Counted from the stretch's first letter, positions 1,569-27,834 are shown. The stretch: 45,902 nt of DNA from an uncultured archaeon (GCA_964562245.1 CAZLSF010000001.1:1-45902); one strand, 5' to 3'. Notes: generated by a model from the letters alone, not told the origin. A program made the numbers and translations.

Positions 1569-1621
1569 TATATTATTTGATTAAATTAAATATAGTTCAA
1601 TTTTATTATTTTTACTTTAGA

Positions 1622-2245: not shown

Positions 2246-2247
2246 AA

Positions 2248-2634: not shown

Positions 2635-2698
2635 AATTAAGAATAAAAATTAAATAGTTATTAAATTGCTGATATTTTAATTATTTGGAATCTTATGT

Positions 2699-4753: not shown

Positions 4754-5232
4754 ATATTATTTATTTCTTAATGAGTTATATAAAATTTTATACTTCTCCC
4801 AATTGTTTATATTGTTTTGAATAAACTTAAATACAAGTAAGACTGAAGTTTATATTATATCAAGGAAGAATACAACTATGAGAAACTCGTTTAAATGGAA
4901 AATAACTATGATAATGTTTGTTAAAAATATATTTTTTATCTGAAGCAATACTATTTGAGAAATAATTCTAAGTCCGGGTTTTCTGCGGATAAAGAGGGTT
5001 TAAATGGAAAGTGAAATAGAGAAAAGAAGAGAAGACAGATTGTGGTATAAACTACGTTAATGTCGGGCACAATCTATTAAACCTATATACAGGTTAGTTC
5101 TACCCACAACCCTATAGATAAAACAATTAATATCAATAAACAAATAACCCAAGTTTGATTTTCTTTTCCAAAATTACAGTTTAAGATATTAGTATTAATT
5201 AATCTTTGCAAAAGCCTCGTAATTTCTGATAA

Positions 5233-6492
5233 TTATTTTATAACATCCTTCCCAACAAAATCTCTCAAAACTTTTGGAACAATTATTGAACCGTCTTCCT
5301 GTTGGTAATTTTCAAGGATGCATGCAATTGTTCTCTCTGTTGCAATCGCTGTTGAATTTAATGTATGAACTAATTCTTTGTTTCCCCCATGTTTTCCGAA
5401 TTTCACATTCAACTTTGCTGTCTGAAAATTAGTACAGTTTGAACATGATCCAAGTTCTCTATATTTTTTCTGCGCAGGAAACCATGCTTCCAAATCATAT
5501 TTCTTTGCAGCATTATCATTTAATTCCCCGCTTGCAATATTCACAACCCTGTAAGGCAATTCCAAAGCCTGATAAATTTCCTCTGTGTTTTTAATTAATT
5601 CCTCGAAAATATTCCAGCTGTCTTTTGGATTGCAGAAAACAAACTGTTCAATTTTGTCAAACTGGTGAACCCTGAAAATTCCTTTTGTATCCTTCCCATG
5701 GCTACCGGCTTCTTTCCTGAAACATGTTGAAAATCCCGCATATTTTAGTGGAAGAACTTCCTCCTCCAGAACTTCTCCTGAATGAAGTGAAGCAATTGAC
5801 TGCTCACTTGTTGCAATTAAATAAGAATCTTCGCCTTCAAGTTTATAAAGTGTTTCCTCAAAATCAGCAAGTTCCGCAGCGGCTTTCATATATTTCTTGT
5901 TTATAAAGAAAGGCGTTAATATAGGAATAAACCCTTTTTTAATAAGTCTCTTGATCCCAAAATCAATTAAAGCAAGATTTAACAAAACCAAATCACCTTT
6001 AAGAAAATAAGTTCTTGCTCCTGAGATTTTTGCCGCTCTCTCAAGTTCTGCAAATCTTTCAACAAGTTCAGCGTGCCCTTTTGGTGTAAAATCAAATTCC
6101 TTAAGTTCGCCAAAAGTCCTGACTATTATATTATCCTCTTCTGTTGGGGCAACAGGAACACTTTGGTCAAGAATATTCCCAATTTTATATCTGTAATTTT
6201 CCCTTTCTTCTTTCAAGAACTGAACTTCCCGTTCCAGTTTAGAAATTTCATCATCTATTTTGCTTGCATTAATTATTAAATCTTCTGTTTCTTTTTTTTC
6301 TCTTTTTAACTTGCCTATTTCTTCTGAAATTTTGTTTTTTTTGTGTTTTAATTTCTGGATTTCCTCTAATTTCTCCCTCCATCTTCTATCATATTCGATT
6401 ACTTTATCTACAACAGAAACATCCTTAAATCTGTTTTTTTCGCTTTTTTTTATCAATTCTGAGTTTTCCCTGAATAATTTAATATCTAACAT
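5233..6492 (-). CDS. serS: seryl-tRNA synthetase
   Basis: 419 aa. N-terminal coiled-coil arm (MLDIKLFREN...). Class II core motifs: FRKEAGSHGKDTKGIFRVHQFDKIEQF and GSCSNCTNFQ...TLNSTAIATERTI. Confidence 0.95.
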   Translation of the reverse strand: MLDIKLFRENSELIKKSEKNRFKDVSVVDKVIEYDRRWREKLEEIQKLKHKKNKISEEIGKLKREKKETEDLIINASKIDDEISKLEREVQFLKEERENYRYKIGNILDQSVPVAPTEEDNIIVRTFGELKEFDFTPKGHAELVERFAELERAAKISGARTYFLKGDLVLLNLALIDFGIKRLIKKGFIPILTPFFINKKYMKAAAELADFEETLYKLEGEDSYLIATSEQSIASLHSGEVLEEEVLPLKYAGFSTCFRKEAGSHGKDTKGIFRVHQFDKIEQFVFCNPKDSWNIFEELIKNTEEIYQALELPYRVVNIASGELNDNAAKKYDLEAWFPAQKKYRELGSCSNCTNFQTAKLNVKFGKHGGNKELVHTLNSTAIATERTIACILENYQQEDGSIIVPKVLRDFVGKDVIK

Positions 6493-6552
6493 AATTAAAT
6501 AATTTTAAAAACAATTTAAACAAAAACTGCTAAAATCCTTTAAATAATACAA

Positions 6553-7242
6553 TTAAGAAGTTTGGGTGGTATTTATTTCAGACAGAACTTGTTCCAATAA
6601 AGTAATATTTTCAATTATATATTCCACATTTAATTCTTCAGCTTCTCTTTTATTTAAATGACCGGATAATACGACGATTGGAATCAGACCAGCTGCTTGA
6701 GCCATAATAACATCGCCTTTAGCATCACCAACAAGCACTGCTTCGTGTGGTTTGATATTTTGAGTTTTCAAAATTTGTTCAACCATGTAAGGATGAGGTT
6801 TTTGTTTCTCAACATCATCAATATCATAAGAAGATATTATTTGTTTGAAAATATCTGGAAAATCAAATTTAGGTATTACTTTATTCTTAAGAACCTCTGG
6901 ATTAAGGCCCGTTGCAATACATAAGATATAATTTTTTGATAACTTTTTTAATAATTCTATTGTTCCCGGAATCATGCTTAAACTATCTATGAAAGTATTT
7001 CCAAATAATTTAGATTCATAAATTTTACAGGCTTTGTCAAGTAGTTCAGGATACTCTTTAAGAAGTTCTCGCAATTCCTCACGATGAGATTTACTCCACT
7101 TCGCCATAATCCTATTTCTCTCTTCCTTTGGATCTAAATATATATTTAAATCAGCCAAAGTTTCGTGGTAGCACTTAAAATATCCTTCTTTTGACCCTAA
7201 AGTTAATACATCGTCCCAATCGAAAACTATTAGTTTAATCAT
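6553..7242 (-). CDS. HAD-superfamily hydrolase (subfamily IA-like phosphatase)
   Basis: Motif I is IVFDWDDVLT (DxDxV). Motif II is IATG. Motif III Lys lies in KQKPHP. Motif IV is VGDAKGD. Confidence 0.85.
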   Translation of the reverse strand: MIKLIVFDWDDVLTLGSKEGYFKCYHETLADLNIYLDPKEERNRIMAKWSKSHREELRELLKEYPELLDKACKIYESKLFGNTFIDSLSMIPGTIELLKKLSKNYILCIATGLNPEVLKNKVIPKFDFPDIFKQIISSYDIDDVEKQKPHPYMVEQILKTQNIKPHEAVLVGDAKGDVIMAQAAGLIPIVVLSGHLNKREAEELNVEYIIENITLLEQVLSEINTTQTS

Positions 7243-7267
7243 AAGAATATATTAAAATTAATTCTAA

Positions 7268-7579
7268 AATATTAATATTGTATCTTACAAGATCTCAATT
7301 GTAGTATCCCAAAATAATTTCACCCCCAAAATACCTAAAATTGACTTAATATTTGCAAGAATCAAACATCCTCAAACAAACGGAAAGATTGAAAAATGGT
7401 TCGATATTTATCAGAAACACAGATGCAGGTTTAACAGGTTAGAAGACTTTATTAACTGGTACAACAACAAGAAACCTCACATGAGTCTTAGATTCAATAA
7501 AGCAGAGACACCTTCAGAAGCATTTATCAGAAAGATAAAAACAGAGGTCTGGTTGGGTTTTGTGAAGCATTGGTTTTAA
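7268..7579 (+). pseudogene. C-terminal remnant of a DDE (rve/integrase-core) IS transposase
   Basis: Open frame with no start codon, encoding ...IFARIKHPQTNGKIEKWFDIYQKHRCRFNRLEDFINWYNNKKPHMSL.... HPQTNGKxE(K/R)(W/F) followed by YN..RPH is the signature end of the rve domain. The whole N-terminal and catalytic DD part is missing. Confidence 0.75.
7285..7299. repeat. 15-bp direct repeat, copy 1 (ttacaagatctcaat)
   Basis: An identical 15-mer recurs at 7636-7650. The two copies bracket the transposase remnant. The repeat contains the palindrome agatct. Confidence 0.85.
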
Positions 7580-7635
7580 TATGAAGAGAGTAAAATATAT
7601 TATAGAAAAGGGTGAAATAAAAACGGGATATCACA

Positions 7636-7650
7636 TTACAAGATCTCAAT
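7636..7650. repeat. 15-bp direct repeat, copy 2 (ttacaagatctcaat)
   Basis: Identical to 7285-7299. Confidence 0.85.
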
Positions 7651-7657
7651 CCAATAG

Positions 7658-8278
7658 TTAATTATATTTCCTTTTTAAATACCCGTAAAATACCTCTCTC
7701 TTAACAAGTGTATCAAATAAGTTATCTTCTATTAACTCCTTATATAAACTCATATCCTGTTTATCATATTCACCTCTCACAAAATAAGGCGTATCTGAAT
7801 CAGTGTAAATTCTGCAAATATCATAATCTTTAAGATTTGGGGCATATTCTTCAATAATTTTCCTGAAGTTTCTCTCAAGAAATTCTCTCGCGGCTATCTC
7901 ATGCTTGCATTTTCCCGGAACCCTACAAATTCCCTTGCTATAAAGTATATAATTGCAACTATGAGCGGAATTATTTATAGGTTCTAAAATATTTCTGGTC
8001 TGATCTGGATTATCAACTCTTTCCAGTTTAAACATCACATCATAATTCATAAAGTTTCCGCTTTCTGAAGGAACTTTTAATACAATATCTAGAGTGCTCC
8101 CGTTTTCACAGTCTCCCCCAACCCAAGTGATTTTTATTTTATTATTTTCAAGGAATTGTTCTGCTTTCGCAATATACCAAGGGTCTCCAAATAAATCCAC
8201 CTCTTCTCTTCTGATTCCAAAATGTTTCCATGAATTATATAAATCTCTTCTCCACCTCACAGCTCTATCGTGTTTCAT
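7658..8278 (-). CDS. hypothetical protein (206 aa) with SWIM-like Cys/His cluster
   Basis: ATG ORF. The segment CNYILYSKGICRVPGKCKHE gives C-x9-C-x5-C-x-H, which is loosely SWIM-zinc-finger-like. I recognise nothing else. Confidence 0.5.
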   Translation of the reverse strand: MKHDRAVRWRRDLYNSWKHFGIRREEVDLFGDPWYIAKAEQFLENNKIKITWVGGDCENGSTLDIVLKVPSESGNFMNYDVMFKLERVDNPDQTRNILEPINNSAHSCNYILYSKGICRVPGKCKHEIAAREFLERNFRKIIEEYAPNLKDYDICRIYTDSDTPYFVRGEYDKQDMSLYKELIEDNLFDTLVKREVFYGYLKRKYN

Positions 8279-8597
8279 ATTTCCACAAAGGATAGTTTAA
8301 ACTTATAGAATTTAACTTAATCCCAAATTCATTATACCTTGCTTCAGATCTTTCAAGAATTATTTCTTTTCCATTAAAAAGTAAGTTTGTTCCCTTCTCG
8401 CAAGCAGTGTTTAGCAGCTTTTTATAAGTTTCATCTAAATAAGGATAATTCTGGATTTCTGCGCCTGTTGGTCCTGCAACCACATATAATCTGCCCTGCT
8501 CCTTATATAATGTGCCTTTAATTGAGATATACTTATCTCGATAATCAGTACTGAACCTATCCAATACTCTTTTTTTGGTTTCTCCTATATCCGCCAT
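8265..8597 (-). CDS. hypothetical protein (110 aa)
   Basis: ATG ORF. Its 3' end overlaps the start of the downstream gene by 14 nt, which suggests co-transcription. No family recognised. Confidence 0.45.
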   Translation of the reverse strand: MADIGETKKRVLDRFSTDYRDKYISIKGTLYKEQGRLYVVAGPTGAEIQNYPYLDETYKKLLNTACEKGTNLLFNGKEIILERSEARYNEFGIKLNSISLNYPLWKYETR

Positions 8598-8645
8598 AAT
8601 TTAGTGAGTAACTTATTTTAAATATTCATTGAAAATATTTTATAG

Positions 8646-8900
8646 CTAATTTTTAAGTTTATTTAATCCATAATCCAGATAACCTGACACTTCCTGGTCA
8701 TATTCAATTGCACCAACAACTGCTGAATAAGCTAATACTCCGCCAGCCAAAGCAATTGCCGAGCCAGGAAGCTGCTCTGTAATAAAATCTGCGGTTGATC
8801 CTAAACCACCTACAACAATAATTTCTACCACTCTATTAAAAACGTATCCCCTGCAAGTATCCACTCCCCAAATAGGTTTAATACCTCGCAACTCATTCAT
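8646..8900 (-). CDS. hypothetical small Gly/Ala-rich protein (84 aa)
   Basis: ATG ORF with a central hydrophobic G/A-rich segment (VVGGLGSTADF...AIALAGGVLAYSAVVGA). No family recognised. Confidence 0.4.
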   Translation of the reverse strand: MNELRGIKPIWGVDTCRGYVFNRVVEIIVVGGLGSTADFITEQLPGSAIALAGGVLAYSAVVGAIEYDQEVSGYLDYGLNKLKN

Positions 8901-9018: not shown

Positions 9019-10581
9019 TTACCGTTCAAGAATGTCGAGATGAACTTTAAATTTGTTTTCCAGTTTATCAATTCCTTTCCCTCCTCTACCGATTAATTTT
9101 GCAATTATTTTTTTATTAACATAAATCCTAAAATCTGTTCCTGAAATATGTTCTACTGCAACATTTTTATCATACTTGCTGATCTCCTTTTTTATCTGCT
9201 TGATTTTTTTCCCCACTTCTTTTTCATCAAACTCTTCAATTGGAATAACAATTATTTCGTCCCCGAAAGAATATATTTCATACTCAAGTTTTCCTGTTTC
9301 AAATGATCTAACTTCTATAATAGGTCTTGCAAGGTCAGAATCTCTCATCCCTGTAGGAACTCTTACTATCAAATCCGTGGAATAAACTTCTTCAATTTTA
9401 CCGTCCTTTACAAAAATTATTGTATCCACAATATTATGAAGCATCCCTAGTTCAATTTTGTTGACAAATCTCTGGATTGAATCAATTGGTTGGGAAGCGT
9501 GAATTACACCAACCATTCCAACGCCTGCAAGTCTCAAATCACTGAAAATCTTAAAATCAAAAGAAGTTCTTATTTCATCAAAAATCGTGTAATCTGGTCT
9601 AACCAATAACAATATTTCTGCTGTTTTTGCAAAGGATTTTGCCAACGGGGCGTATTGGGTGATTTTTTCATTCACCTGTAAATCCCTTGGCTGTTCCATA
9701 GTCTTTACAATCTTATTCTGTTTCTGGTAAAATTCAGCCAGACTTGCGGCCAATGTTGATTTGCCGCTTCCTGGAGGACCTGAAATAAGAATGCCTCCAG
9801 CCTCATCGGTTATTCTCTTTTTAAGTTTCTCTGAAAGTTCATAATCATCAATATTCAATTTTGCTATTGGTCGCACAATAGTCATCTCCTTGTCATCTGA
9901 AAACGGAGGTCTTGTGATTGAGATTCTCATATCCTTTATCTGCAAAACCATGGCCCCGTATTCCTCAAATTCAACAAAAGCGAAATTCTTTCCCCGGATT
10001 TCCTTAAGTACGCTGGATGCAAGTTGTTCAAATTTTGATTTTGAAAGTTTCTCTTTTCCAACTTTTTTTAATTCCCATTTGCCGGGGTGTCCTCTTTTTG
10101 CTAAAGTAACGCAATTCACCTTAAAATGCAAAGACATCGTATCTTTCGTGAGTAATTCTAGAAATTCAAGCTCTGCTTTTTTATGCGCAGTTTTAATGAA
10201 TTTTACTTTTACTCCAAAAACTTCCGCAACAAGAGCCTGCACAAAATCTCTTGTGTATAATGTTGCTTTGTGTTTCTGCGCAAGTTCCCTTATCAATGCA
10301 TCAATTCTTCCTTTCTTTGCAAGTTTTATTTCTTCTATTGTTGGCTTCCTCCCCACAAATTCAAGTTTCACATTTCGTTTCCTTAGTTCTTTAATTTCTT
10401 CAAGACCTAAAAAACCAATTTCCTTTCCTTTGTTTGCCTGAGCCTGAAGTTCATCAATAACAAATTCAGGAATAAGAACCTTTACTTTTTTTAATTGTCC
10501 AATATCAATTAATTCAGTAAGCTTTTTTGAAATCAATACTGAAGTATCCGGCACAATTAATTCTTCTTTTCCAAAATTCAT
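9019..10581 (-). CDS. PIN-domain / PilT-family ATPase / KH-domain protein (COG1855-type)
   Basis: N-terminal PIN-like segment (IVPDTSVLIS...IPEFVIDELQ). Walker A is ILISGPPGSGKSTLA. The C-terminal KH motif is IAKLIGRGGKGIDKLE. Confidence 0.85.
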   Translation of the reverse strand: MNFGKEELIVPDTSVLISKKLTELIDIGQLKKVKVLIPEFVIDELQAQANKGKEIGFLGLEEIKELRKRNVKLEFVGRKPTIEEIKLAKKGRIDALIRELAQKHKATLYTRDFVQALVAEVFGVKVKFIKTAHKKAELEFLELLTKDTMSLHFKVNCVTLAKRGHPGKWELKKVGKEKLSKSKFEQLASSVLKEIRGKNFAFVEFEEYGAMVLQIKDMRISITRPPFSDDKEMTIVRPIAKLNIDDYELSEKLKKRITDEAGGILISGPPGSGKSTLAASLAEFYQKQNKIVKTMEQPRDLQVNEKITQYAPLAKSFAKTAEILLLVRPDYTIFDEIRTSFDFKIFSDLRLAGVGMVGVIHASQPIDSIQRFVNKIELGMLHNIVDTIIFVKDGKIEEVYSTDLIVRVPTGMRDSDLARPIIEVRSFETGKLEYEIYSFGDEIIVIPIEEFDEKEVGKKIKQIKKEISKYDKNVAVEHISGTDFRIYVNKKIIAKLIGRGGKGIDKLENKFKVHLDILER

Positions 10582-17506: not shown

Positions 17507-17911
17507 TTACTTCTTAACTAATTCAGGCATTTTCAATGGTGGTGGCAACTGCAAATCATCCGCAATCTTCACACTCTGAATCATGCATTTTCTGAAGATG
17601 TAATTTACTATATACAATGAAACTTTTTCATCAATTTTCTTTTCTTTTTCCCATTTGGTTAAAATTTCTTTCTGGTTCTTGTCTGTATACAACAATTCAC
17701 CGCCAAGGTTTATTTTTGCTTTTGTTGGTTCATATTTGGTCTTATATTCAAATTCTATTGCAAGAACTTTTGTCGTATTTCCCGCAATTCCGAGTTCTCT
17801 CTCAACAATATTTTTTATTTTTGGCAATGAAGAAGATATTTTCAACTCTCCTGTTGAAATTTCTCCTACAGATCCTTCAAGATTAGTTAACCTGAAACTC
17901 AAGATTCCCAT
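17507..17911 (-). CDS. hypothetical protein (134 aa), possible SecB-like fold
   Basis: ATG ORF. The N-terminal two thirds look beta-rich. The C-terminal segment IVNYIFRKCMIQSVKIADDLQLPPPLKMPEL loosely resembles the SecB segment ending ...GFPPLxLxPVNF. The family call is weak. Confidence 0.45.
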   Translation of the reverse strand: MGILSFRLTNLEGSVGEISTGELKISSSLPKIKNIVERELGIAGNTTKVLAIEFEYKTKYEPTKAKINLGGELLYTDKNQKEILTKWEKEKKIDEKVSLYIVNYIFRKCMIQSVKIADDLQLPPPLKMPELVKK

Positions 17912-18023: not shown

Positions 18024-18881
18024 ATGCTTCAGAATTATATTAAAAGAATTTATTTATCTTATGGTGAAATTGCAGAACAAATTTCACCTCATTTCAAATA
18101 TGTATTGGAAGACCTCAAAAAAAGCGGATTGAAATATACTCTTGAAGAATATCTTTCCCTTGCAATTTTTATATCCTTGATAGTTTTTGTGGTTGAACTC
18201 CCAATTATAACTCTAACTTTATCTTTTTTTATTCATGTTGTTTTTGCTATTTTACTTTCCTTTATTTTCTCTTTTGCAGGAGCAATAATCATTTTTTTTC
18301 TTTTTACCACTTATCCAAAAGCGCAGGTCAGTAATTTAGCCTCAAAAATAGACAAAGGCTTACCTTTCTCTGTTAGTTATATGACTGCAGCAGCCAGTTC
18401 TGATGCTCCACCAATCACAATTTTTAAAGCAATTACAAAGTTAGATGAATATCCTGAATTAAAAGATCAGGCTCAAAATGTGATAAGGGATGTAGATGCT
18501 CTTGGGATGGATATATTAAGTGCTTTGAGAAGGGAATCAAAAAGAACCCCATCTAAAGAATTTAGAGATTTACTCTTTGGAATAGAATCAACCATAAGTT
18601 CAGGCGCGGATTTAACTCTTTTTTTAAACAGCAAATCAATTTCTTTGTTCAAATCTTACCAGAGAAAAATTAAAGCTTATGCTAATACCTTATCTATGAT
18701 TATAGAAATGTATATTACAGTAGTAATCGTTGGTCCAATTTTTTTCACAATTTTATCAAGTGTAATGAGTATGATGGGTGGAGTTGAAAATGCACTTGCA
18801 ATGCAGGTTTTGGTTTCTTTTATATTAATGCCCGCGATATCTGTAATCCTTGCTTTTTATATCAATATGGCTTCACCATGA
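18024..18881 (+). CDS. type IV pilus/archaellum platform protein, single T2SSF domain (FlaJ/TadB-like, first half)
   Basis: TM-rich. The T2SSF cytoplasmic domain reads KGLPFSVSYMTAAASSDAPPITIFKAI...ELKDQAQNVIRDVDALGMDILSALRRESKRTPSKEFRDLLFGIESTISSGADL. Confidence 0.8.
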   Translation: MLQNYIKRIYLSYGEIAEQISPHFKYVLEDLKKSGLKYTLEEYLSLAIFISLIVFVVELPIITLTLSFFIHVVFAILLSFIFSFAGAIIIFFLFTTYPKAQVSNLASKIDKGLPFSVSYMTAAASSDAPPITIFKAITKLDEYPELKDQAQNVIRDVDALGMDILSALRRESKRTPSKEFRDLLFGIESTISSGADLTLFLNSKSISLFKSYQRKIKAYANTLSMIIEMYITVVIVGPIFFTILSSVMSMMGGVENALAMQVLVSFILMPAISVILAFYINMASP

Positions 18882-19852
18882 AAACCAAAAAATTTTTAAA
18901 AGGAAAACTAACAAAAACTCAAGAGATTTTATTATATTCTGCAATAGGATCTCTTGCTGTCATCCTATTTGGGCTGGTTCTTTCTTTATCATTTGCCAAC
19001 TTTAATATTTTGTTAAACTTTTTTGTTTTTGCGGTTTTTGTTTTTGTTTTACCGTTTTTCTTTTACAGATATATACATTTCCTGGAAATAAAAGACTGTG
19101 AAAAAAATATCCCTATATTTTTTACTGATTTGAAAGAAATTAAAAAGAGCGGAGTTTCTTTTCCAGAAGCAATTAAATCCTGTAAAGGCGATTATGGAAA
19201 ATTAAATAAATATATAGAAAAATTAAAAAAAGATATAAGCTGGGGAATTAGCATAGATTCCAGTTTAAAACAAATGCAAAATAGTTTGGGTGAAAGTAAA
19301 GTTTCATCAAGAGCTATTTCAACTTTATTAGAAACTTACAGGTCTGGAGGAAATATGGAAGATATTTTGGAAACTTTAATAACCTCTTTGCTCAAAATAA
19401 TGGAAAGTGAAAAAGACAAAAACTCAATGATGCAACAACATGTATTTATAATGTATGGTATTTTTTTGATGTTCGTTGGATTAATAATTGCTCTTGGAAA
19501 TTTTTTAATTCCTATGTTTTCTGAAATGGGAGGAACTGAAACAGGATTGGGTAATATTCAATTAATGCAAGCGAAGTCTCCTTGCCTTGCTTGTTATGAT
19601 CCTTTTTGTTATGGTCTTTGCGGTTATTATAACCTTATTGGAGGAATGTTTGGTTTTGGAGAGCCAAATTCACTGCCCGTATACTACAAATCCTTGTTTT
19701 TTACAATGGTTCTTATCCAGGGATTTTTTACCGGATTAATTGCCGGGCAGATCTCAGCAAAAAGTTGGTTGGAAGGAATAAAACATGGTTTGATTATGTT
19801 TTTCTTGGGATTATTCATTATAGTTATGGCAAATCTTGTTGGTTTCTTTTAA
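18878..19852 (+). CDS. type IV pilus/archaellum platform protein, single T2SSF domain (FlaJ/TadC-like, second half)
   Basis: Its start overlaps the upstream stop (ATGA at 18878-18881). The T2SSF domain reads IPIFFTDLKEIKKSGVSFPEAIKSC...ISWGISIDSSLKQMQ...TLLETYRSGGNMEDIL. A Cys-rich loop (SPCLACYDPFCYGLCGYY) sits between the C-terminal TM helices. Confidence 0.8.
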   Translation: MKTKKFLKGKLTKTQEILLYSAIGSLAVILFGLVLSLSFANFNILLNFFVFAVFVFVLPFFFYRYIHFLEIKDCEKNIPIFFTDLKEIKKSGVSFPEAIKSCKGDYGKLNKYIEKLKKDISWGISIDSSLKQMQNSLGESKVSSRAISTLLETYRSGGNMEDILETLITSLLKIMESEKDKNSMMQQHVFIMYGIFLMFVGLIIALGNFLIPMFSEMGGTETGLGNIQLMQAKSPCLACYDPFCYGLCGYYNLIGGMFGFGEPNSLPVYYKSLFFTMVLIQGFFTGLIAGQISAKSWLEGIKHGLIMFFLGLFIIVMANLVGFF

Positions 19853-19853
19853 A

Positions 19854-20405
19854 ATGATGAAAAATAAAGTTTGTAACTATAAATCTAAAAAGAGAATAAA
19901 ATTGATGGTTACAAAGTTTAAAGGACAGGTAAATATTTATTTTATTATCAGTACTATTTTGTTCGTCTCTCTTTCAATTTATTTAATTTCGATTATTATA
20001 GAAATATATCCAACACATCAAAATGATATATCTTCTGATGTTTGGTATTCTAAAGCATATTCAGTTTCTGAATTATTAATAAAAGATTCTGGTTATCCAA
20101 AAGACTGGGATGAAACTAATTTTGAAAGAATCGGGCTTGCTTCTGAACCTTACTCTTTAAATTCAACAAAAATTAATGAATTTGAGAAAATATGTAATTC
20201 AACAACAAACTTAACAAAAATTCAAAAATTTAGAGATTCTTTTGGATTGGAGAATAATAATTTGGTTGTTGAAATTAATTATTTAAACAATACAAATATA
20301 ATAAAATGTAAGCCTACGGGTGAAAAAGTTGGTGCAACAGCGCGTATAAAAAGAATTGCAACTCTAAATAATAAATTTGTAGAAGTGATTGTTTATGTCG
20401 GGTAA
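19854..20405 (+). CDS. pilin-like protein with class III signal peptide
   Basis: The ORF-track start at 19836 is TTG. ATG codons occur at 19854 and 19905. The sequence ...MVTKFKG|QVNIYFIISTILFVSLSIYLISIII is a basic-Gly cleavage motif followed by a hydrophobic helix. Confidence 0.55.
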   Translation: MMKNKVCNYKSKKRIKLMVTKFKGQVNIYFIISTILFVSLSIYLISIIIEIYPTHQNDISSDVWYSKAYSVSELLIKDSGYPKDWDETNFERIGLASEPYSLNSTKINEFEKICNSTTNLTKIQKFRDSFGLENNNLVVEINYLNNTNIIKCKPTGEKVGATARIKRIATLNNKFVEVIVYVG

Positions 20406-20469
20406 AAGATTTATTTTGACAACTGAAGTTTAGTTAAACTAAGTGATAATTTATAAATTAGTTGAGCTA

Positions 20470-20952
20470 ATGGAATTTATTATGAACAATGAGGAAAAAT
20501 TAATTTTGAGAGCAATTCTTTTGATAATTCCTTTAATCTTTCTCTCCTCTTTTCATTTTGAACTTCAAGTTTTTCACCAGGTTTTTTTTTCACATGTTAT
20601 CTGGTTTTTGGAGTTATTTGGTATCAAATCTCAAGTTCAAGGATATCAAATAATAACAAAAAATTTCTCGTCAATAATAACTTTTGACTGCACCGGATGG
20701 AAACAGTTTTATATTTTTTGCACCTTAATATTCTTACCTTTAAGAATTAAACTTTCAAGCAGACTTAAAGGTTTATTATTTCTAATTCCTTTATATTTTT
20801 ATAACATTTTTAGAGTGATTATTACAATTTATATTAGTTCCATTTCTTATTCCTGGTTTAAACCAGTTCATTATTTCTTATGGAATTTTTTGTTCCTTGC
20901 CCTGATCTTTATTTTCTGGTTTTTTTGGTATCAACACATGAAAAAGAATTAA
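20470..20952 (+). CDS. minimal archaeosortase/exosortase-family-like membrane protein
   Basis: Polytopic membrane protein. It has IITFDCTGWKQ (Cys codon at 20689-20691), then PLYFYNIFRVIITIY 41 residues later (Arg codon at 20812-20814), then KPVHYFLWNF (His codon at 20869-20871). This matches the xxCSG ... NxxR ... H layout of exosortase/archaeosortase cores. The track start at 20443 is GTG; I use the ATG at 20470 (an alternative ATG is at 20482). Confidence 0.6.
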   Translation: MEFIMNNEEKLILRAILLIIPLIFLSSFHFELQVFHQVFFSHVIWFLELFGIKSQVQGYQIITKNFSSIITFDCTGWKQFYIFCTLIFLPLRIKLSSRLKGLLFLIPLYFYNIFRVIITIYISSISYSWFKPVHYFLWNFLFLALIFIFWFFWYQHMKKN

Positions 20953-21045
20953 TTACAAATTATCCAGATAATTCTAGAAAAATCAAAATAAAAAATTCTC
21001 AAAAATGTTGGCAATTATAATTAAAAACAAAATAACAGAAAAATT

Positions 21046-24000
21046 ATGAGGAGGCATTATTTTAGTCAAAAACAGGCTTTATTAATATGTTTTACATTAA
21101 GTTTTTTTCTTCTTCCAGCAATATCATTAGCAACATGCTGTACTGAGTTACTATCTTCTTGTCCATATGGAAATGTGGATGGCAATAGTTGTAATAATGT
21201 TAGTATCGGATCTTATTGTGAAGGTGATGGTGAATGCGGAACAGATAATAATGCAAATAATTGTAATGTATGGGATTGGTACAAGCGGGTATGTTGTGAT
21301 AATGGTGTTAGTTGTTCTGTAGATGGAGATTGTTGTTCAGGCAATTGCGTGGATGGTTATTGCTGTGATTCTGCCTGCAATGGTGCTTGTGAAGCCTGCA
21401 ATGTAGCGGGACATGAAGGAACTTGCACAGATGATCATTCTTTATGTAGTGGAACAATTTCTTCCTGCTATTGTAGTGGTGGAGTTTGCCAACCTTGTAC
21501 TGACCCAGGAGGTTGCAGTTATGCAACTTGTATAGGTCATACTTGCGGAACTGCAGATTATGGGACATCTCATGAATGCAATTCAGCTTGGAAATGTTCT
21601 ACATCTACAGGGGATGGTAACTACGGAGTTGGAAGCGGAAATTACAAATGCCAAGGATATTGCGATGGGTCTGGGAATTGTGATTACGCTGGAAACTGCT
21701 ATAATTGCAATGACGATAATTATTATTATTGCGAAACAGGAAATAATAAATATTACCAGGATTATGATTGCTCTGGTGGAACTTGTGTAAAAGACACTCC
21801 TTCTTTTCGAAAAGATTGTGATGATTATGACGATGATAATTGTTGGTTAGTTTGTGATACTGGAACTGGAGATATAGATAGGTGGTGTGATGATTGGTAT
21901 TGCAATAGTGGAACATGTAAAGATTCTGGAAATAACTGGCTCAGAGATAATCCTTATAGTGATTGTTCAGATACAGCAAGTGATAATGATGGAGGAGATA
22001 AACCAAAGACATCAGGAACTTGCACAGATTATGAACTCTGTACCTCTGGAGATACTTCCTGTCCCTCCACAGATTATCCAGATAATTGTGCCTCTACAAC
22101 ACATTTAGAAGAATATTATCCTTACTCCAATGATTGCACTTCAAAAGATTATTATTGCAGTGATTTTGAAGTTGCAGCAACAGACTCCTATGGAGATGAT
22201 CCTACCTACACAGAAACTTGCTATGGTGGAATAGGGGCTTCTTGTTCTTCTAACCAATTTGTAACCTCTTCTCAAAGTGATTTTACAGATCACTGTACCG
22301 GAACTTGCGGAACAGGGATAGATTCTTGTTATTTTATAGAATACTATCCTGCTGATTCAGGAGATGCTTGCTCAGGGAATGATTACTGCAAACCAAAAAA
22401 TTATGATGCAGATCATGAAAGCAACACTTGCAATGCATGTGGATTAAATTGGAATCTTGATTGTTCCTTTGGGGATTGCTCTCCTTCTGAATCTTCAAGC
22501 AAAGAGGTCGGTACAACTTACACTTATAATTACTGTTGTGGGGATGATGCAAGTGAATATGCAATAACTTGTTCCTGTAACTTAAATTCCTGTTCTTCTG
22601 ACAGCACAGATGCCTGCTGCGCAAATTCAGATGATTGTGTCTGGGCAGGTGGGTGTTATTTAAATGGAAATACTACCGACATAGATTCTGATGGAATAGA
22701 TGAATATTGTAAAGGTAATGAAAATAAATGGTATGCCTATCCAAATATTACTTCAATTTCTATAGATAAATCCCCAATAGACAGAGATGATGAAGTAGAT
22801 AAATTTACACCTGACACTGAAATAAAAATTACAGCAGAAATTTATGATCAAGATAATAACGACAGGGATAAAGTTTATATAACTATTTACGAACCAGATG
22901 GAGTAACAATTGCAAAAGACCAAAGTGGAACATCTATAAATTCAAAACTTATGATCTGTTCTGATACAAATTCAAATCATTGGAGTTGCTATTATAATTA
23001 CAACCCAGAAGATGGTTCTCCTATTAGAGATTATGATGTAAAAATAAAAGCTGTTGATAACGAGGGTTTGGAAGATACAAAAACAGAAAGTAATTTATTT
23101 AAAGTTGAAGATATTTATTTAACTAATATGAATCACTATGGAACAACAAAAGATTTGCACATAACAGGAACAGCAAAATATACAACTTATGATACTACAG
23201 TCTCCGGGGCAAATGTAAAATGCTATGCTGAAGACAAAATTTGTTCAACAACCACAGATGGTGGTGGAAACTTTGATTGTAATATAGGGGAACTAAACAA
23301 AAATTTTGCACAGTATAATACAATAAAAACAAACACTTTTATCTGCGAGGTTATGGATATTTATAATATTGCGGGTAGTAGGACTTATAATATAACTATC
23401 GGATTGCGGGCTACAACTCACACCTGGAATGACACAACCCTTTATCATGATGAAACAGTAAGTTTTAATGTTACTTTTAAAAATGTTGGGGATTTAACTT
23501 TTGCAATGGATGACTTATATTGGGAAATCAGTTCTGAAAATGGAACCAACCCGGAAATAAACGAAGATTGTCATAACACAGGCTGGGTAGATGCATGTGG
23601 ATATTTAGGGAAATATGAAGGAGATCCGCATAATTCTTGTGGATGTTATATTCAGTTTGACCAAAACTTGGTTCCTGGAAACACAGTTACTTATTCTGGT
23701 TCCTGGAAAGCAAAATATCATGAATTTGGAGATTATAATTTTAGTGTTTGGGTAGAGTTTCCAGATAATGAAACTGGTTTTACAAATATCGTTGCCGGAC
23801 AAAAAATAAAGACAATTAAAATATTAGATAAATCGCCAGTAAATCTAACCTTTATGTTTGCTTTGCCTTCCCCTGTTGATAGAGATAAAGAAACATCCAA
23901 GACAAATGATAATATTACAATAAGAGTCAATGCAACTGATTATGTTGATGGAGTTCTTGGCGATAATGATGAATTAGAGCAATATTCTACAATTTGGGTG

Positions 24001-25821
24001 AAAAGTGATCAAAACAATAATTGGATGATCTGCGAAAATGTAACAATGAACCAGATTCCTTATCATAATGCATATTATTACGGGAACTGCACTTGGAACC
24101 CACCTAATGATATGTCTGATGTTGATTTAGGTAATTTTAGTGTTAAGTTCAAAGTTCTTGGGTATGGAAGTTATCATGATATTGTAGGGGAAGGTTACAA
24201 TATTTCTGATTACTCTGAAAATACAGACAAATTTGTTGTTGAAGATATTGATATATCAAATATTGCTTGGTCCTTTGGAAACACAACAGATTTAATTTTT
24301 ATAGGAAATGCAACCTACCTTTCAAATAATCTAAGAATTAACAATATAACAAATCAAACTTGCAGCCAGCCCATAATTTTAGATATTCCTGATGGAAATG
24401 AAAATACAAGAGAAAATATAAATCCGCCAGATTCAAGACTTTGTGGGATTAATTCTTTTGCGCAAGATATAACTTGCACTGTAATAAATGGAAATTTTAG
24501 TTGTTATGTCAGAAATATTAAGCTGAATGATACAACAGTTACTTTTTCCTATATTTTAACTGATGAAAAAAATATTTCAGGAAACGAAGACCTAACGATC
24601 AATTTAAACGGAACAATAGATGATTTTATCAATATAAGTGATCCGGATGGATTTGTAAATATTTATCAACCAATTAATTATACAATAAATTTCTCAAACA
24701 CAGGAAACATTGGATGGTTTGGAGAGATTTCTAATCAAACAAGAATAAAAATCTATTCTCCTGCTGGAGAAAATCCTGTAATTCCCTCGCAAGAGCATAT
24801 TTCTTTAGATTGTGATAACAATAGTTCCTGGGTGAATTTGATGAATGGAACAACCAGTAATTTTTCGCATTTCTTGGGTCATTCTTATTATGTTCTGGGA
24901 AAATATAATTATATAACAAATTTAAGTTATTTCTGGTCTGATTCTTTACATAGTATAAATTTCTCTATTACAACAGGAGGAAAAACAAACTACACGGTTG
25001 CAGCAATAGATATTACAGATTATAATTTACCCAACAAAGTTGTTAGAGGAAACCAGATTATAGGAAAAGCAAAGGGATATTTTGTTGGTTCAATGGATAT
25101 AGGTTATTGGGAAGAAATTCAAGGAGATGCATTTAAAGTTACAAACAACACAACAAATGCAATATATTGGGTTGAGAAATGGAATAAAACTTCAAAAATA
25201 GGAACAGAAATTCCAGAAACAAACATGACCTGGAATCCTGGTTTTTGGGAAGGTAAAATAAATACCTTTGATTTAAGTTGTGATGATGAAACAACAGTTC
25301 ATAGAGTTTATTTCCTGATTAACTGGACAGATTTTAATATTTATACCCCTTATGTAAAAGGAGAATTTAAATCAGAATTCTGGCCTTATTTTTATCAAAA
25401 TTTAAGTGTGATCTGTACCTCAAGAGAATTATTTGAAGTTAATCCAGAAATTACGAATGTTGCTCTAGGAACAGAAAATAGAGATATTTATAATATTTTT
25501 ATTGAAAATCCAAGTGACAGTCCAGTTGATATAAACCTGACAATAAATTGTGATGATTACCCTGATGCTGTAAATTGGGTAAATGAAAATCATTGGACTA
25601 TTCATATTCCTGCAGAGAGTTCTACTTCAAAAATAGTTACCTTAGACGAGGCTCCAAGAGTTGGTAACTATGAATTTTCTGTATCGGTAAGAGGAGACCT
25701 AAGATATGACAAAAAAGTCTGGTTGAATATTTTCTCAGAAGCGTTGGGTTCTGATAGTTTAGTTTATCTTCTCTTATTATTTTTCATGACTTCTATTTTA
25801 TTGATTAAAAGAAAATTATGA
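21046..25821 (+). CDS. giant (1591 aa) secreted Cys-rich, heavily sequon-decorated surface protein with C-terminal anchor/sorting-like tail
   Basis: Signal peptide MRRHYFSQKQALLICFTLSFFLLPAISLA. There are 71 Cys between residues ~31 and 560 by hand count. One DIDSDGIDEY Ca-binding-type motif is present. Two large beta-rich super-repeats follow. I count more than 30 N-x-S/T sequons. The C-terminus reads ...SEALGSDSLVYLLLLFFMTSILLIKRKL. Confidence 0.9.
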   Translation: MRRHYFSQKQALLICFTLSFFLLPAISLATCCTELLSSCPYGNVDGNSCNNVSIGSYCEGDGECGTDNNANNCNVWDWYKRVCCDNGVSCSVDGDCCSGNCVDGYCCDSACNGACEACNVAGHEGTCTDDHSLCSGTISSCYCSGGVCQPCTDPGGCSYATCIGHTCGTADYGTSHECNSAWKCSTSTGDGNYGVGSGNYKCQGYCDGSGNCDYAGNCYNCNDDNYYYCETGNNKYYQDYDCSGGTCVKDTPSFRKDCDDYDDDNCWLVCDTGTGDIDRWCDDWYCNSGTCKDSGNNWLRDNPYSDCSDTASDNDGGDKPKTSGTCTDYELCTSGDTSCPSTDYPDNCASTTHLEEYYPYSNDCTSKDYYCSDFEVAATDSYGDDPTYTETCYGGIGASCSSNQFVTSSQSDFTDHCTGTCGTGIDSCYFIEYYPADSGDACSGNDYCKPKNYDADHESNTCNACGLNWNLDCSFGDCSPSESSSKEVGTTYTYNYCCGDDASEYAITCSCNLNSCSSDSTDACCANSDDCVWAGGCYLNGNTTDIDSDGIDEYCKGNENKWYAYPNITSISIDKSPIDRDDEVDKFTPDTEIKITAEIYDQDNNDRDKVYITIYEPDGVTIAKDQSGTSINSKLMICSDTNSNHWSCYYNYNPEDGSPIRDYDVKIKAVDNEGLEDTKTESNLFKVEDIYLTNMNHYGTTKDLHITGTAKYTTYDTTVSGANVKCYAEDKICSTTTDGGGNFDCNIGELNKNFAQYNTIKTNTFICEVMDIYNIAGSRTYNITIGLRATTHTWNDTTLYHDETVSFNVTFKNVGDLTFAMDDLYWEISSENGTNPEINEDCHNTGWVDACGYLGKYEGDPHNSCGCYIQFDQNLVPGNTVTYSGSWKAKYHEFGDYNFSVWVEFPDNETGFTNIVAGQKIKTIKILDKSPVNLTFMFALPSPVDRDKETSKTNDNITIRVNATDYVDGVLGDNDELEQYSTIWVKSDQNNNWMICENVTMNQIPYHNAYYYGNCTWNPPNDMSDVDLGNFSVKFKVLGYGSYHDIVGEGYNISDYSENTDKFVVEDIDISNIAWSFGNTTDLIFIGNATYLSNNLRINNITNQTCSQPIILDIPDGNENTRENINPPDSRLCGINSFAQDITCTVINGNFSCYVRNIKLNDTTVTFSYILTDEKNISGNEDLTINLNGTIDDFINISDPDGFVNIYQPINYTINFSNTGNIGWFGEISNQTRIKIYSPAGENPVIPSQEHISLDCDNNSSWVNLMNGTTSNFSHFLGHSYYVLGKYNYITNLSYFWSDSLHSINFSITTGGKTNYTVAAIDITDYNLPNKVVRGNQIIGKAKGYFVGSMDIGYWEEIQGDAFKVTNNTTNAIYWVEKWNKTSKIGTEIPETNMTWNPGFWEGKINTFDLSCDDETTVHRVYFLINWTDFNIYTPYVKGEFKSEFWPYFYQNLSVICTSRELFEVNPEITNVALGTENRDIYNIFIENPSDSPVDINLTINCDDYPDAVNWVNENHWTIHIPAESSTSKIVTLDEAPRVGNYEFSVSVRGDLRYDKKVWLNIFSEALGSDSLVYLLLLFFMTSILLIKRKL

Positions 25822-26429
25822 ACCATAGAAAATTTAAGGGGGTGTCGCCAATAATTTCTTCTATTTTAATAATTGGAATTCTTGCGATAATTACTGGAAT
25901 TGCTTATCAATGGGGAATGCCAATGATTCAAAAAAACATTGATATAACAACTTTAAATAAAGCCGAAAATTTTCTAAGGAAATTAGATAATTCAGTCTCT
26001 GATATTGCAAAAACGGGAGGAACAGAGGAATTGATTTTTAATCTACCCGGAGAAATTAATATAAATCCAGAGAATAATACAATAAAATTCTCTCTAAAAA
26101 CCAGTGGGAGTATTTATATGCAAGGAGGTATTGTTTGTTTTAGCAGGAATTGCAATTTAACAGAGGGCACTTGGGGGAAAGATTCTTATTCTGTTATTAA
26201 CGCCCAAGTAGATCAGTTTGAAGAATACGCAACGATAACGACTTACTCAATCATATATAGAAATCTCACAAGAGGAGAAGGATTTAATAAAAAAATATAT
26301 CTTCTGGATATTGTAACTCCCGGAAATGCAACCATTGTTGGTTCTGAAAATTCCAGAATTTCAATTGAAAAAATTGGTGAAGAGAGGGGGGATGTAACAA
26401 AAACTATTATCAAATTAGATATCAAATAA
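25818..26429 (+). CDS. archaeal type IV pilin-like protein (class III signal peptide, DUF361-type N-terminus)
   Basis: MNHRKFKG|VSPIISSILIIGILAIITGIAY. The start overlaps the stop of the giant gene (ATGA at 25818-25821). Confidence 0.8.
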   Translation: MNHRKFKGVSPIISSILIIGILAIITGIAYQWGMPMIQKNIDITTLNKAENFLRKLDNSVSDIAKTGGTEELIFNLPGEININPENNTIKFSLKTSGSIYMQGGIVCFSRNCNLTEGTWGKDSYSVINAQVDQFEEYATITTYSIIYRNLTRGEGFNKKIYLLDIVTPGNATIVGSENSRISIEKIGEERGDVTKTIIKLDIK

Positions 26430-26529
26430 AAAATTAAGTTGTAAACTTAAATAAAGTTTTCAGAAATTAATCCAATAAAATGTAGTATTAGATGAAAATG
26501 TGAGTTAGTTATAAACTATAAAATAATTT

Positions 26530-27834
26530 ATGGTGATTAAAGAATCTACTAAAAGCAATAACAAAGGATTTGTTAGGGTTATAGAAATTGTAATCTTTTC
26601 TTTTATTTTGTTTGTCTTACTCATGCCAACTTTCTTTTATTATTCTAATATAAATGATTGGAACAAAGCAAATGGTTTGTTGTTGTGTAATGATTTGCTT
26701 TATTCAATTGAAAAAAACAAAACTTTTGATAATGTTTTAAATCCTTTTGTTGAAAATTCAGATTTTTCTGGAGAACATCAAAAAGATTTGGAGTTGCTGA
26801 AAAATATTACTGATAGAGTCTTTCCGGTTGCTGTTGATTTTGACTATGAGATAAAAAATATCGCTCCTTACGAAATTTCTATTGGGTGTAATTGCACTCA
26901 GAGTCAGATAGACTGGCTAAATAAAGAAATTTTGACTCCAAGTTATCCAACAGTAAAATTCCCAATTAAACAGGTAAGTTTGAATAATTTATCCTCCGAA
27001 TATAATTTGTTTATTATTTTTGATAAAGTTAATTTATCCAAACCAAACATTAAATCAAATATTACCGCAATGCTAAAGAAAGGAAAAGGTTTTGTCTTAA
27101 TCAGAAATTTTTTATCTGATCCTGATCAATTTACAAAAGAACTCTTTGGTATTGATTTTTCTGGTGTTGGTTTCTCCACAAATAATTTGAGTTTTAATAA
27201 TTTATCAACTCCAAAAACAGCAGGAATTGCAAAGAGATTTATAAACAATCTAATTAGGATTAATCTATCTAATGGAAAAGGTATCTTGCAACTCAGAAAT
27301 GAAAGATTTGAAATAAATGCAACAAAAAATCACGTAAATATATCTGATTGCTCACTTTCTCAAGGAGATAGTTGCATACTTTCTGGAATTGCGAACATAA
27401 CTTTATTTCAAATTGATCCTCTTGATATAGATTGGGTGAGGGCAGATTTTGAGGAGTGGATAGACTTAAAAATTTCAGGAACTTCAAATCCGAGAGATTA
27501 TAGTTTTTATGACACTTTCCCGCTAAATGTTAATAAAAATAATTATACTATCTTATCATTTGGAACAAATACTGCTACAAATGCAAAAATTTTAAAAAAA
27601 TATTCTAAATCCTATGAAAATGAACCAAGGACTTTCTGGATTTATGATTATAACCAAACAAAAGATGACTTAAATTTACTTTTAAAAACAGGAATTATCT
27701 GGACCTCTGGAGAACACTATTTTGTATTTGACAAAAAAATTACAGATGAAAGAAATTATTGCCAGCATTTTTATTCAGGTCTAGACGAAAATAATATACC
27801 TTTTTTAGTTAAATTATATTTCTTTGGTTATTAA
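26530..27834 (+). CDS. large pilin-like/pseudopilin-like protein (434 aa) with N-terminal class III-like signal
   Basis: MVIKESTKSNNKG|FVRVIEIVIFSFILFVLLM. Gly-Phe followed by a Glu at +6 resembles bacterial prepilin sites. The rest is unrecognised and sequon-rich. Confidence 0.5.
   Translation: MVIKESTKSNNKGFVRVIEIVIFSFILFVLLMPTFFYYSNINDWNKANGLLLCNDLLYSIEKNKTFDNVLNPFVENSDFSGEHQKDLELLKNITDRVFPVAVDFDYEIKNIAPYEISIGCNCTQSQIDWLNKEILTPSYPTVKFPIKQVSLNNLSSEYNLFIIFDKVNLSKPNIKSNITAMLKKGKGFVLIRNFLSDPDQFTKELFGIDFSGVGFSTNNLSFNNLSTPKTAGIAKRFINNLIRINLSNGKGILQLRNERFEINATKNHVNISDCSLSQGDSCILSGIANITLFQIDPLDIDWVRADFEEWIDLKISGTSNPRDYSFYDTFPLNVNKNNYTILSFGTNTATNAKILKKYSKSYENEPRTFWIYDYNQTKDDLNLLLKTGIIWTSGEHYFVFDKKITDERNYCQHFYSGLDENNIPFLVKLYFFGY

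Follow-up and report, generated by a model that had tools for sequence, protein, structure and literature searches.

The subject of this study is a cluster of seven plus-strand genes (g1-g7, in order; positions 18024-27834) in a 45,902-nt stretch of DNA from an uncultured archaeon (GCA_964562245.1 CAZLSF010000001.1:1-45902), here called the window. Genes for a type IV pilus-type platform and for pilin-like proteins stand there beside genes for an archaeosortase-like enzyme and a giant surface protein, and related systems have been described from both archaea and bacteria. The ArtA archaeosortase of Haloferax volcanii processes PGF-CTERM substrates (PMC6098224). In M. maripaludis, natural transformation genetically requires ArtE, a small archaeosortase described as uncharacterized, and the same study connects transformation with the type IV-like pilus (PMC10133366). 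In DPANN archaea, type IV pilus islands hold genes for FlaI and TadC together with ‘specific surface proteins’ and pilins that cannot be recognised (Makarova et al. 2019, PMC6393860). Thermoproteales clade 4B has loci in which two TadC genes accompany the gene of a surface protein that contains Cys and is anchored C-terminally (Makarova et al. 2016, PMC4858521). Bacterial clients of rhombosortase (GlyGly-CTERM, Vibrio) and myxosortase (MYXO-CTERM, Myxococcus) are passed to the secretion system of type II (T2SS; PMC11980579). A preliminary description of the window noted that pilus machines and C-terminal sorting are normally described as separate; as a rule without exception this would be too strong, in view of these T2SS clients with processed tags.

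The cluster is real and conserved. In it a platform-sortase module and an adhesin-pilin module have been joined within a particular lineage, and it varies on kinds of system already known (DPANN pilus islands, archaeosortase systems). As its best explanation we propose, with a probability of roughly one half, a lineage-specific type IV pilus-like surface apparatus whose two modules were made neighbours in one clade and which would work by the mechanism set out below. Module 1 (g1-g4) comprises a split platform, the prepilin-like g3 and a minimal archaeosortase-superfamily enzyme (g4) with a Cys/Arg/His set. Module 2 (g5-g7) comprises a hypervariable, glycosylatable surface protein of many beta-sandwich domains, the coupled pilin-like g6 and a second large prepilin-like protein, g7. 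The proposal builds on observed gene content, superfamily-level membership, translational coupling, a gene order that is both conserved and modular, and the tie between g6 and an ATPase of the FlaI type. All seven open reading frames (ORFs) of the preliminary description were recovered in the ORF list (Table 1). The gene content of the window is archaeal (eIF-1A, TFIIB-repeat protein, diphthamide synthase, CDC48, SecF; G+C ~31%), and every relative carrying a taxon name is a Candidatus Aenigmatarchaeota member. The source organism is a small symbiont-type DPANN archaeon of the Aenigmatarchaeota, in agreement with the DPANN origin suggested earlier.

Table 1. Features of the window, with positions counted from its first nucleotide
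Feature	Position	Strand	Length (aa)	Description
g1	18024-18881	+	285	N-terminal half of split FlaJ/TadC-type (T2SSF) platform
g2	18878-19852	+	324	C-terminal half of split platform
g3	19854-20405 (mechanical ORF opens at TTG 19836)	+	183-189	Prepilin-like
g4	20482-20952 (mechanical ORF opens at GTG 20443)	+	156-169	Minimal exosortase/archaeosortase-superfamily membrane protein
g5	21046-25821	+	1591	Secreted, Cys-rich, sequon-rich surface protein; variable N-terminal part, conserved C-terminal part
g5, Cys-rich N-terminal region (variable ‘passenger’)	21136-22725	+		Residues ~31-560; 72 of 92 Cys
g5, conserved C-terminal part	23845-25821	+		Residues 934-1591; beta-rich domains, final beta-sandwich and helix
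g5, C-terminal tail KKVWLNIFSEALGSDSLVYLLLLFFMTSILLIKRKL	25711-25818	+		Motif, hydrophobic helix, basic end; candidate tripartite sorting signal
g6	25818-26429	+	203	Pilin-like, translationally coupled to g5
g7	26530-27834	+	434	Prepilin-like
ORF divergent from g1	17507-17911	-	134	Conserved neighbour of the system
Canonical archaeal type IV pilin	41970-42389	-	139	Pilin_N 26.0 bits (cut-off 25.2); N-terminus MLQGLKG, then ISPIVASVLLIVISVAIAAIV

The likeness to ArtA and its PGF-CTERM substrates lies in a polytopic g4 that passes the superfamily model and has conserved Cys, Arg and His residues, and in a candidate substrate, g5, that is predicted to be Sec-exported, is glycosylatable and ends in a motif, a hydrophobic helix and a basic end. 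The two systems differ in that g4 is about half the size (~156 aa) and stays under all curated subfamily cut-offs, curated motifs such as PGF and PEF are absent from the g5 tail, and the g4 gene lies in a pilus platform operon. Like the pilus islands and the Thermoproteales loci, the locus has a TadC-type platform that is split or duplicated, class-III-signal proteins of divergent sequence and, among its pilus genes, one for a large Cys-bearing surface protein whose only C-terminal feature of this kind is one membrane helix. Unlike them, it has no ATPase gene in the window, and its hypervariable surface protein shows strict coupling to a single pilin-like gene; the string ‘sortase’ does not occur in the main texts of PMC6393860 and PMC4858521. 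The rhombosortase and myxosortase systems resemble the proposed scheme in that a tripartite C-terminal tag is cut by a membrane protease and a machine of the type IV filament class then takes the protein to the surface. However, the protease families are unrelated, those systems are bacterial and involve an outer membrane, linkage of protease and T2SS genes is not described in the passages of PMC11980579 that were covered, and the coupling proposed here is read from gene order only. An account of an exosortase-family gene in an archaeal pilus locus was not found in the searchable literature (the Haft 2012 archaeosortase paper lay outside this scope), as the preliminary description had supposed.

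Seven arrangements (A, A’ and B-F) were distinguished among the window and 30 related loci (L001-L030), which were gathered via three queries: the sortase (g4) family, the g6 family and the C-terminal part of g5. Genes g1-g7 were placed onto L001-L018 by tblastn and onto later loci by called gene tables with blastp/tblastn checks. In arrangement A (window, L019, L022), g1 to g7 are followed by the gene for eIF-1A; L001/L006 show g1-g5 of the same order, the contig ending inside g5. Arrangement A’ (L025) is the same, with two opposite-strand genes for secreted proteins between g4 and a short (694 aa) g5. The order read from the window thus recurs in three other Aenigmatarchaeota assemblies (L019, L022, L025), and a fourth agrees to the contig end. 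Protein identity among the order-keeping relatives was 78-84% for g1-g4 and g6, 71% for g7 and ~50% for the conserved parts of g5. Arrangement B consists of g1-g2-g3-g4 with none of g5, g6 and g7 downstream within ~3.5 kb (L009) or 7-9 kb (L014, L015), and L010 and L016 are B-like, their contigs stopping at g4. Arrangement C (L002-4) lacks platform genes; here the sortase gene and a pair made up of a g5 homolog (847 aa) and g6 are convergent. The sortase gene of arrangement D directly follows GAPDH, among housekeeping genes (L007, L008, L011 (=L005), L012, L013, L018). Arrangement E (L023, L024) contains g5-g6, a 137-138-aa RGQ/KGQ pilin and a FlaI-type ATPase, without a sortase; the L024 contig begins inside the g5-type gene, and L030 carries g6, the RGQ/KGQ pilin and the ATPase without the giant gene.

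The position of g6 in these arrangements gives strong evidence that its family belongs to a type IV pilus-type system, because a FlaI-type ATPase (FlaI model, 398.8 bits) and a small pilin adjoin g6 in three divergent lineages, and platform genes do so in the clade of the window. The case for g5-type proteins as partners of g6 is likewise strong, as the two genes overlap wherever both occur (L002, L019, L022, L023, L025). In arrangement F (L026-L029, ~1356-5114), a g6 homolog (73% identity) precedes the gene for a 1015-aa NosD-type beta-helix protein, whose membrane anchor is of another type and whose cytoplasmic tail is long and basic. From this, members of the g6 family appear to have large surface proteins of more than one kind as partners. 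The module of g5 with g6 and g7 is analogous to PilY1 and the minor pilins of bacterial type IVa pili, where the genes of small pilin-like proteins accompany that of a large non-pilin adhesin, which these proteins are thought to present on the filament. PilY1 differs from g5 in having neither a C-terminal membrane anchor nor a sortase partner, and no similarity to g5 or g6 was found in sequence or fold.

The sortase is linked with moderate confidence to both g5 and the g6/pilus system, because it has a fixed place after g3 in platform-linked loci and adjoins g5 and g6 independently in arrangement C. Its adjacency to g5 plus g6 thus exists in two geometries, tandem in the clade of the window and convergent in L002-4. 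In L002, a DUF87/HerA-type ATPase gene (7381-8865, minus strand) lies directly upstream of the sortase gene and divergent from it.

Both platform genes, recognised as T2SSF-domain genes already in the preliminary description, exceeded the Pfam gathering cut-off for T2SSF (PF00482; 25.2 bits), g1 with 46.8 bits (E 3.6e-12) and g2 with 47.0 bits (E 3e-12). The alignment of g1 covered positions 12-248 of the 555-position ArlJ/FlaJ model and the N-terminal halves of the FlaJ, UpsF and BasF models; g2 aligned to C-terminal halves (BasF 405-562 of 656, FlaJ 184-393 of 465, UpsF 265-432 of 484). A complete platform of the FlaJ/TadC/PilC type has two T2SSF domains. Since opposite model halves were matched, g1 and g2 together represent one FlaJ/TadC-type platform spread over two overlapping genes, and their ATGA overlap is kept in L001, L019, L022 and L025. 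From the FlaI-type ATPase genes behind the g6 homologs of L023, L024 and L030, such an ATPase is expected elsewhere in this genome. One candidate inside the window, at 9019-10581 on the minus strand, was rejected as the pilus ATPase. It combines a PIN domain with a T2SSE-like ATPase and fits the PRK13764/PINA models (Holliday-junction branch migration; 678.8 bits).

The class-III-signal character that the preliminary description had assigned to g3, g6 and g7 stands as far as the N-termini are concerned: each protein begins with a basic leader ending in KG, followed by ~22 hydrophobic residues, and this start is preserved in orthologs. Class-III-type N-termini are conserved in four small-protein families, g3, g6, g7 and the 137-138-aa pilins. 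The leader of g3 ends in KFKG, followed by QVNIYFIISTILFVSLSIYLISIII; this N-terminus is kept in L009, L019 and L022, the shortest leader being MLRG, and g3 invariably lies between g2 and the sortase gene. The N-terminus of g6 reads MNHRKFKG, then VSPIISSILIIGILAIITGIA, and that of g7 ends its leader with SNNKG before FVRVIEIVIFSFILFVLL. The g6 family comprises 28 clusters, of which all taxon-labelled members are Aenigmatarchaeota. Conservation is nearly complete at K7, G8, P11 and S14 and complete at C107 and C112. The AlphaFold2 (AF2) model of g6 (predicted local distance difference test, pLDDT, 81.9) shows a transmembrane (TM) helix, a second helix and then 12 beta strands. Finally, g7 was seen only in the clade having the full seven-gene order; its L019 ortholog is 71% identical, and in both L022 and L025 a 428-aa gene, with eIF-1A after it, holds the g7 position.

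Independent support for the pilin-like reading comes from the protein encoded at 41970-42389, which passes Pilin_N and has an N-terminus close to that of g6 (KG-ISPIVASVLLIV versus KG-VSPIISSILIIG). It is a possible major pilin of the same machine. Its gene lies 14 kb from the locus and adjoins CDC48. Also next to it, at 42728-43885 on the plus strand, is a gene for a tyrosine recombinase (phage integrase family), the C-terminal end of which gave a weak RelB-like match; this gene may mark a mobile or variable region.

As described previously, g5 is a giant secreted Cys-rich protein with a hydrophobic-plus-basic tail. It begins with a signal-like helix, its 92 Cys residues are concentrated in the first 560 aa (72 of 92), and it has 42 NxS/T sequons, mostly in the C-terminal half. 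The C-terminal hydrophobic helix spans residues 1562-1580, so that the tail is composed of NIFSEALGSDS, the 19-residue helix and KRKL. Orthologs vary from 694 to 2329 aa and their N-terminal parts are unrelated: the regions equivalent to the passenger begin with different sequence in L022, L023 and P0042, the 694-aa g5 homolog of L025. Residues 934-1591, in contrast to these unrelated parts, share 37-50% identity with P0042-P0046 and with the L002 protein of 847 aa. DNA tandem repeats were considered as a source of the length variation and none were detected; a blastp self-comparison was also without internal repeats (E <= 0.01). Judged from these sequences, g5 behaves like a variable adhesin on a constant anchor.

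Within the conserved last ~650 aa, conservation was strongest in the closing beta-sandwich and, after it, in the N-[IV]-[FV]-S-x-[AK]-x-G motif, the hydrophobic helix and the terminal basic residues. The motif was drawn to include the divergent tails of L024 (NIVSDAVGGE) and P0043 (NIFSKKVGSE), and the distant L024 tail, which retains it, ends with IIIRDTRKY. A 38-position hidden Markov model (HMM) of the tail had 12 matches among 1.84 billion representatives. The end module of g5 occurs on Cys-rich, immunoglobulin (Ig)-only and beta-helix passengers, the last exemplified by the beta-helix repeat protein P0054. When the window and L001-L018 were scanned for the conserved motif together with a TM segment and a basic tail, only g5 homologs were found. 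L002_432 and L025_451 were tried as further tail carriers and discarded, having a similar TM segment and basic end without the motif. In L025, the inserted secreted-protein genes (4243-8021, minus strand) encode 808 and 451 aa; the 451-aa product ends in a TM helix and KKRR, and the C-terminal part of the 808-aa protein resembles, by eye and without alignment, the N-terminal part of P0055, a bearer of the g5 end module.

Searches of Pfam, NCBIfam and PDB sequences gave no match for g5. The AF2 model of its C-terminal part had a mean pLDDT of 47 and was confident (80-88) only for the last ~100-aa beta-sandwich and the terminal helix. A fold identity taken from the Foldseek matches of this part (alpha-2-macroglobulin, complement, cadherins) was set aside, since these are generic multi-Ig matches that say only ‘many beta-sandwich domains’.

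Similarity of g4 to the exosortase/archaeosortase family, suspected from the window alone, is borne out by TIGR04178, on which g4 scored 37.4 bits (cut-off 23) over model positions 3-93 of 97. With Pfam EpsH (PF09721) it stayed marginally under the gathering cut-off (25.5 vs 25.7). The g4 family forms 13 clusters in a collection of 5.8 billion proteins, and all 13 members pass TIGR04178 (best E 4.1e-10). Identity goes down to 44% among these 13 sequences, in which C83, R124 and H143 are invariant; the putative catalytic codons lie at 20689-20691 (Cys), 20812-20814 (Arg) and 20869-20871 (His). Homologs begin at M14 of the mechanical ORF, which is the Met at 20482, and g4 has at least three strongly hydrophobic helices. 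The nearest subfamily model is pacearchaeosortase (NF033505; 32.3 bits, cut-off 80), a name not mentioned in any paper of the searchable literature; the scores were 29.2 for XrtX (NF046081; 170), 22.1 for XrtH (TIGR04177; 86) and 17.4 for ArtB (TIGR04144; 150). ArtE resembles g4 as a small archaeosortase-family protein, and for ArtE there is a genetic tie to a pilus-related process. Yet g4 reached 18.7 bits on the ArtE model (TIGR04124; cut-off 95), and linkage of artE to pilus genes is not reported in PMC10133366; two of the 13 g4-family members matched this model at E <= 0.001 (best E 1.9e-05). None of the 13 was reported over any curated subfamily cut-off, and g4 is therefore assigned to an unnamed subfamily, so far seen in Aenigmatarchaeota only. 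A search of PDB sequences with the g4 profile returned nothing.

In L020 (1539-4637, minus strand), the gene of a 47% identical sortase relative is convergent with, and overlaps, that of a 1032-aa Cys-rich secreted protein unrelated to g5. This neighbour was rejected as a sortase substrate, as it has no C-terminal helix.

In the neighbour-joining tree of the sortases, the GAPDH-linked copies are basal and paraphyletic and the platform-linked copies form one nested clade, which indicates that the sortase gene was relocated into the platform operon once. After this relocation the order g2-g3-g4 was fixed in all platform-linked loci.

The junctions within the cluster are of two kinds. ATGA overlaps join g1 to g2 (18878-18881) and g5 to g6 (25818-25821), and g2 abuts g3, the g2 stop ending at 19852 and the g3 ATG beginning at 19854. 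The other junctions are wider, with 76 nt between g3 and g4 (to the conserved Met at 20482), 93 nt between g4 and g5 and 100 nt between g6 and g7. The ‘tiny gaps’ of the preliminary description therefore apply to the overlaps, both present as described, and to the g2/g3 abutment, not to these three junctions, which are large enough for an archaeal promoter. A TATA-like TTTATAAA lies in the g3-g4 gap, ~30 nt 5’ of the conserved g4 ATG, so that a separate g4 transcript would be possible. No T run of at least 5 was found inside the seven-gene cluster; a T5 run lies at 27836, directly after the g7 stop.

The conserved ORF divergent from g1 (17507-17911) has 69-70% identical orthologs in the same divergent position in L001, L009, L010, L015 and L016, and 137-aa ORFs hold this position in L019 and L025; a counterpart upstream of g1 is absent in L022. 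Pfam and NCBIfam scans were without match for this ORF, for which a regulatory or accessory role in the platform operon is conceivable. Elsewhere in the window (2699-4486, plus strand), a 595-aa protein has an MtrA (tetrahydromethanopterin S-methyltransferase subunit A) domain, in what is apparently a small-genome DPANN archaeon.

In the proposed pilus-like apparatus, g5 would be exported by Sec and at first held in the membrane by its C-terminal helix. The tripartite tail would then be recognised and cut by g4, followed by lipid re-anchoring, as with ArtA, or by release of g5. A prepilin peptidase would trim g3, g6, g7 and probably the pilin encoded at 41970-42389, and g1 and g2 together with a FlaI-type ATPase would assemble the trimmed pilins into a short filament or pseudopilus; both ATPase and peptidase would be encoded elsewhere in the genome. 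The filament would carry or position g5, which would serve as a variable adhesin when a host cell or a surface is contacted. All these biochemical steps, cleavage of g5 by g4 and any contact between g5 and g6 included, we infer. The case of g5 as a putative g4 substrate is drawn from adjacency in two arrangements and from a tripartite tail outside the known CTERM models. A narrower version of the mechanism, in which g4 cuts the C-terminal helix of the giant adhesin, which is handed over to g6 (and g7) and carried on or at the tip of the filament, we consider unlikely. As a whole, the locus is a good candidate for an attachment apparatus of this uncultured DPANN lineage.

Several results weigh against the proposed apparatus. 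Neither a pilus ATPase of the FlaI/PilB class in the 45.9-kb window nor a match to Peptidase_A24 (prepilin peptidase) in any window ORF scanned was found, as had been noted before; the only T2SSE-like protein of the window is of the PINA type. The class-III assignment of the pilin-like proteins, conserved at the N-terminus, has sub-threshold or no HMM support: g3 and g7 had no family match in the Pfam and NCBIfam scans, and g6 stayed under the cut-offs of Pilin_N (PF07790; 13.7 vs 25.2 bits) and TIGR02537 (11.7 vs 20), the latter being matched by three of 26 g6-family members (best E 0.029). A Foldseek comparison of the g6 model with the PDB gave nothing at E <= 0.001, only noise such as GFP sensors with TM-scores <0.2. 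When the g5 tail and the L002 tail alone were scanned against NCBIfam (E <= 10), no curated CTERM domain was found, Loki-CTERM reaching 11.2 bits (cut-off 19.9). The bare tail was not seen by itself either: the HMM matches inspected (P0052 not among them) keep the preceding ~130-aa domain, the repeat-protein artefact P0051 excepted. Nor is the locus one indivisible cassette, as the preliminary description had pictured it. The g1-g4 block occurs without a nearby g5-type gene in L009, L014 and L015 (the L009 contig ends ~3.5 kb on), g5-g6 occurs without a sortase, g4 and g5 are parted by two opposite-strand genes in L025, and the sortase stands alone after GAPDH in the six loci of arrangement D, which are basal or sister lineages. 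Across much of the phylum, then, the sortase gene is solitary. L030 and L005/L011 come from one metagenome-assembled genome (MAG; E05-068), in which the sortase, placed after GAPDH, and the block of g6, pilin and ATPase lie on separate contigs and are therefore unlinked.

In the main rival reading, the sortase would be a general housekeeping anchoring enzyme, like haloarchaeal ArtA, that was relocated to the platform operon without dedicated coupling to the pilus. In that case g5 would be one of several substrates or no substrate at all, and the pilus would work without the sortase. We regard this as possible, though doubtful. It accords with the six solitary copies among housekeeping genes, with the basal and paraphyletic place of the GAPDH-sortase arrangement in the neighbour-joining tree and the single move that it implies, and with platform-sortase blocks that have no g5. 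It also agrees with g5-g6 plus ATPase standing without a sortase in L023 and likewise in L024, where g6 lies behind a g5-type tail at the cut contig start, and the TATA-like TTTATAAA would permit g4 a transcript of its own. On the other hand, the g2-g3-g4 order did not change after the move in any platform-linked locus, adjacency to g5 plus g6 arose again with a different geometry in L002-4, and only g5 homologs carry the motif, TM segment and basic tail in the window and L001-L018.

Quite unlikely, in our view, is a pseudopilus like that of the bindosome or of type II secretion, which would place or release large surface proteins such as g5 and would not be an attachment pilus. Here g6 and g7 would be pseudopilins and the sortase would prepare the cargo, as rhombosortase and myxosortase do for T2SS clients. 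The platform proteins g1 and g2 do match BasF of the Sulfolobus bindosome (47.4 and 36 bits) and the L023 ATPase matches BasE (206.7 bits), but these scores fall far short of the cut-offs of the two families (1300 and 1000), and higher scores were obtained with the FlaI and FlaJ models. Pairing of g6 homologs with different large proteins, upstream (g5 type) or downstream (the 1015-aa beta-helix protein of L026-29), also fits a pseudopilus, and C-terminal tag processing followed by T2SS handling provides a bacterial precedent (PMC11980579). Archaea of such kind, however, have no outer membrane to cross, and the window encodes a canonical Pilin_N pilin.

That g1-g4 and g5-g7 are unrelated transcription units placed side by side by a compact-genome accident, inherited by close relatives, is very improbable: although the full-order relatives are close at the identities given above, the halves can be separated by inserted genes (L025) and the internal gaps of 76-100 nt could harbour promoters, each half is independently of the type IV pilus type (T2SSF in g1/g2; g6 beside a FlaI-type ATPase elsewhere), the block order is retained despite a different upstream flank in L022, and a T5 run is lacking internally and present directly after g7.

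DPANN archaea live attached to other cells by means that are largely unknown, and the locus supplies concrete, conserved candidates for this attachment: a pilus platform, pilin-like proteins, a variable surface protein with a fixed C-terminal anchor module and a sortase-like enzyme that possibly processes the anchor. If the sortase does act on g5 within a pilus context, the locus would provide the first example from archaea of a type IV filament machine fed by C-terminal sorting, and it would define a new archaeosortase subfamily and a new sorting tail. Sortase-assisted loading, if true, would directly couple two archaeal surface pathways so far treated separately. Even without the sortase link, the g6 family, which lies beside a FlaI-type ATPase and mostly beside a large variable surface protein, offers a handle for finding attachment genes in Aenigmatarchaeota.

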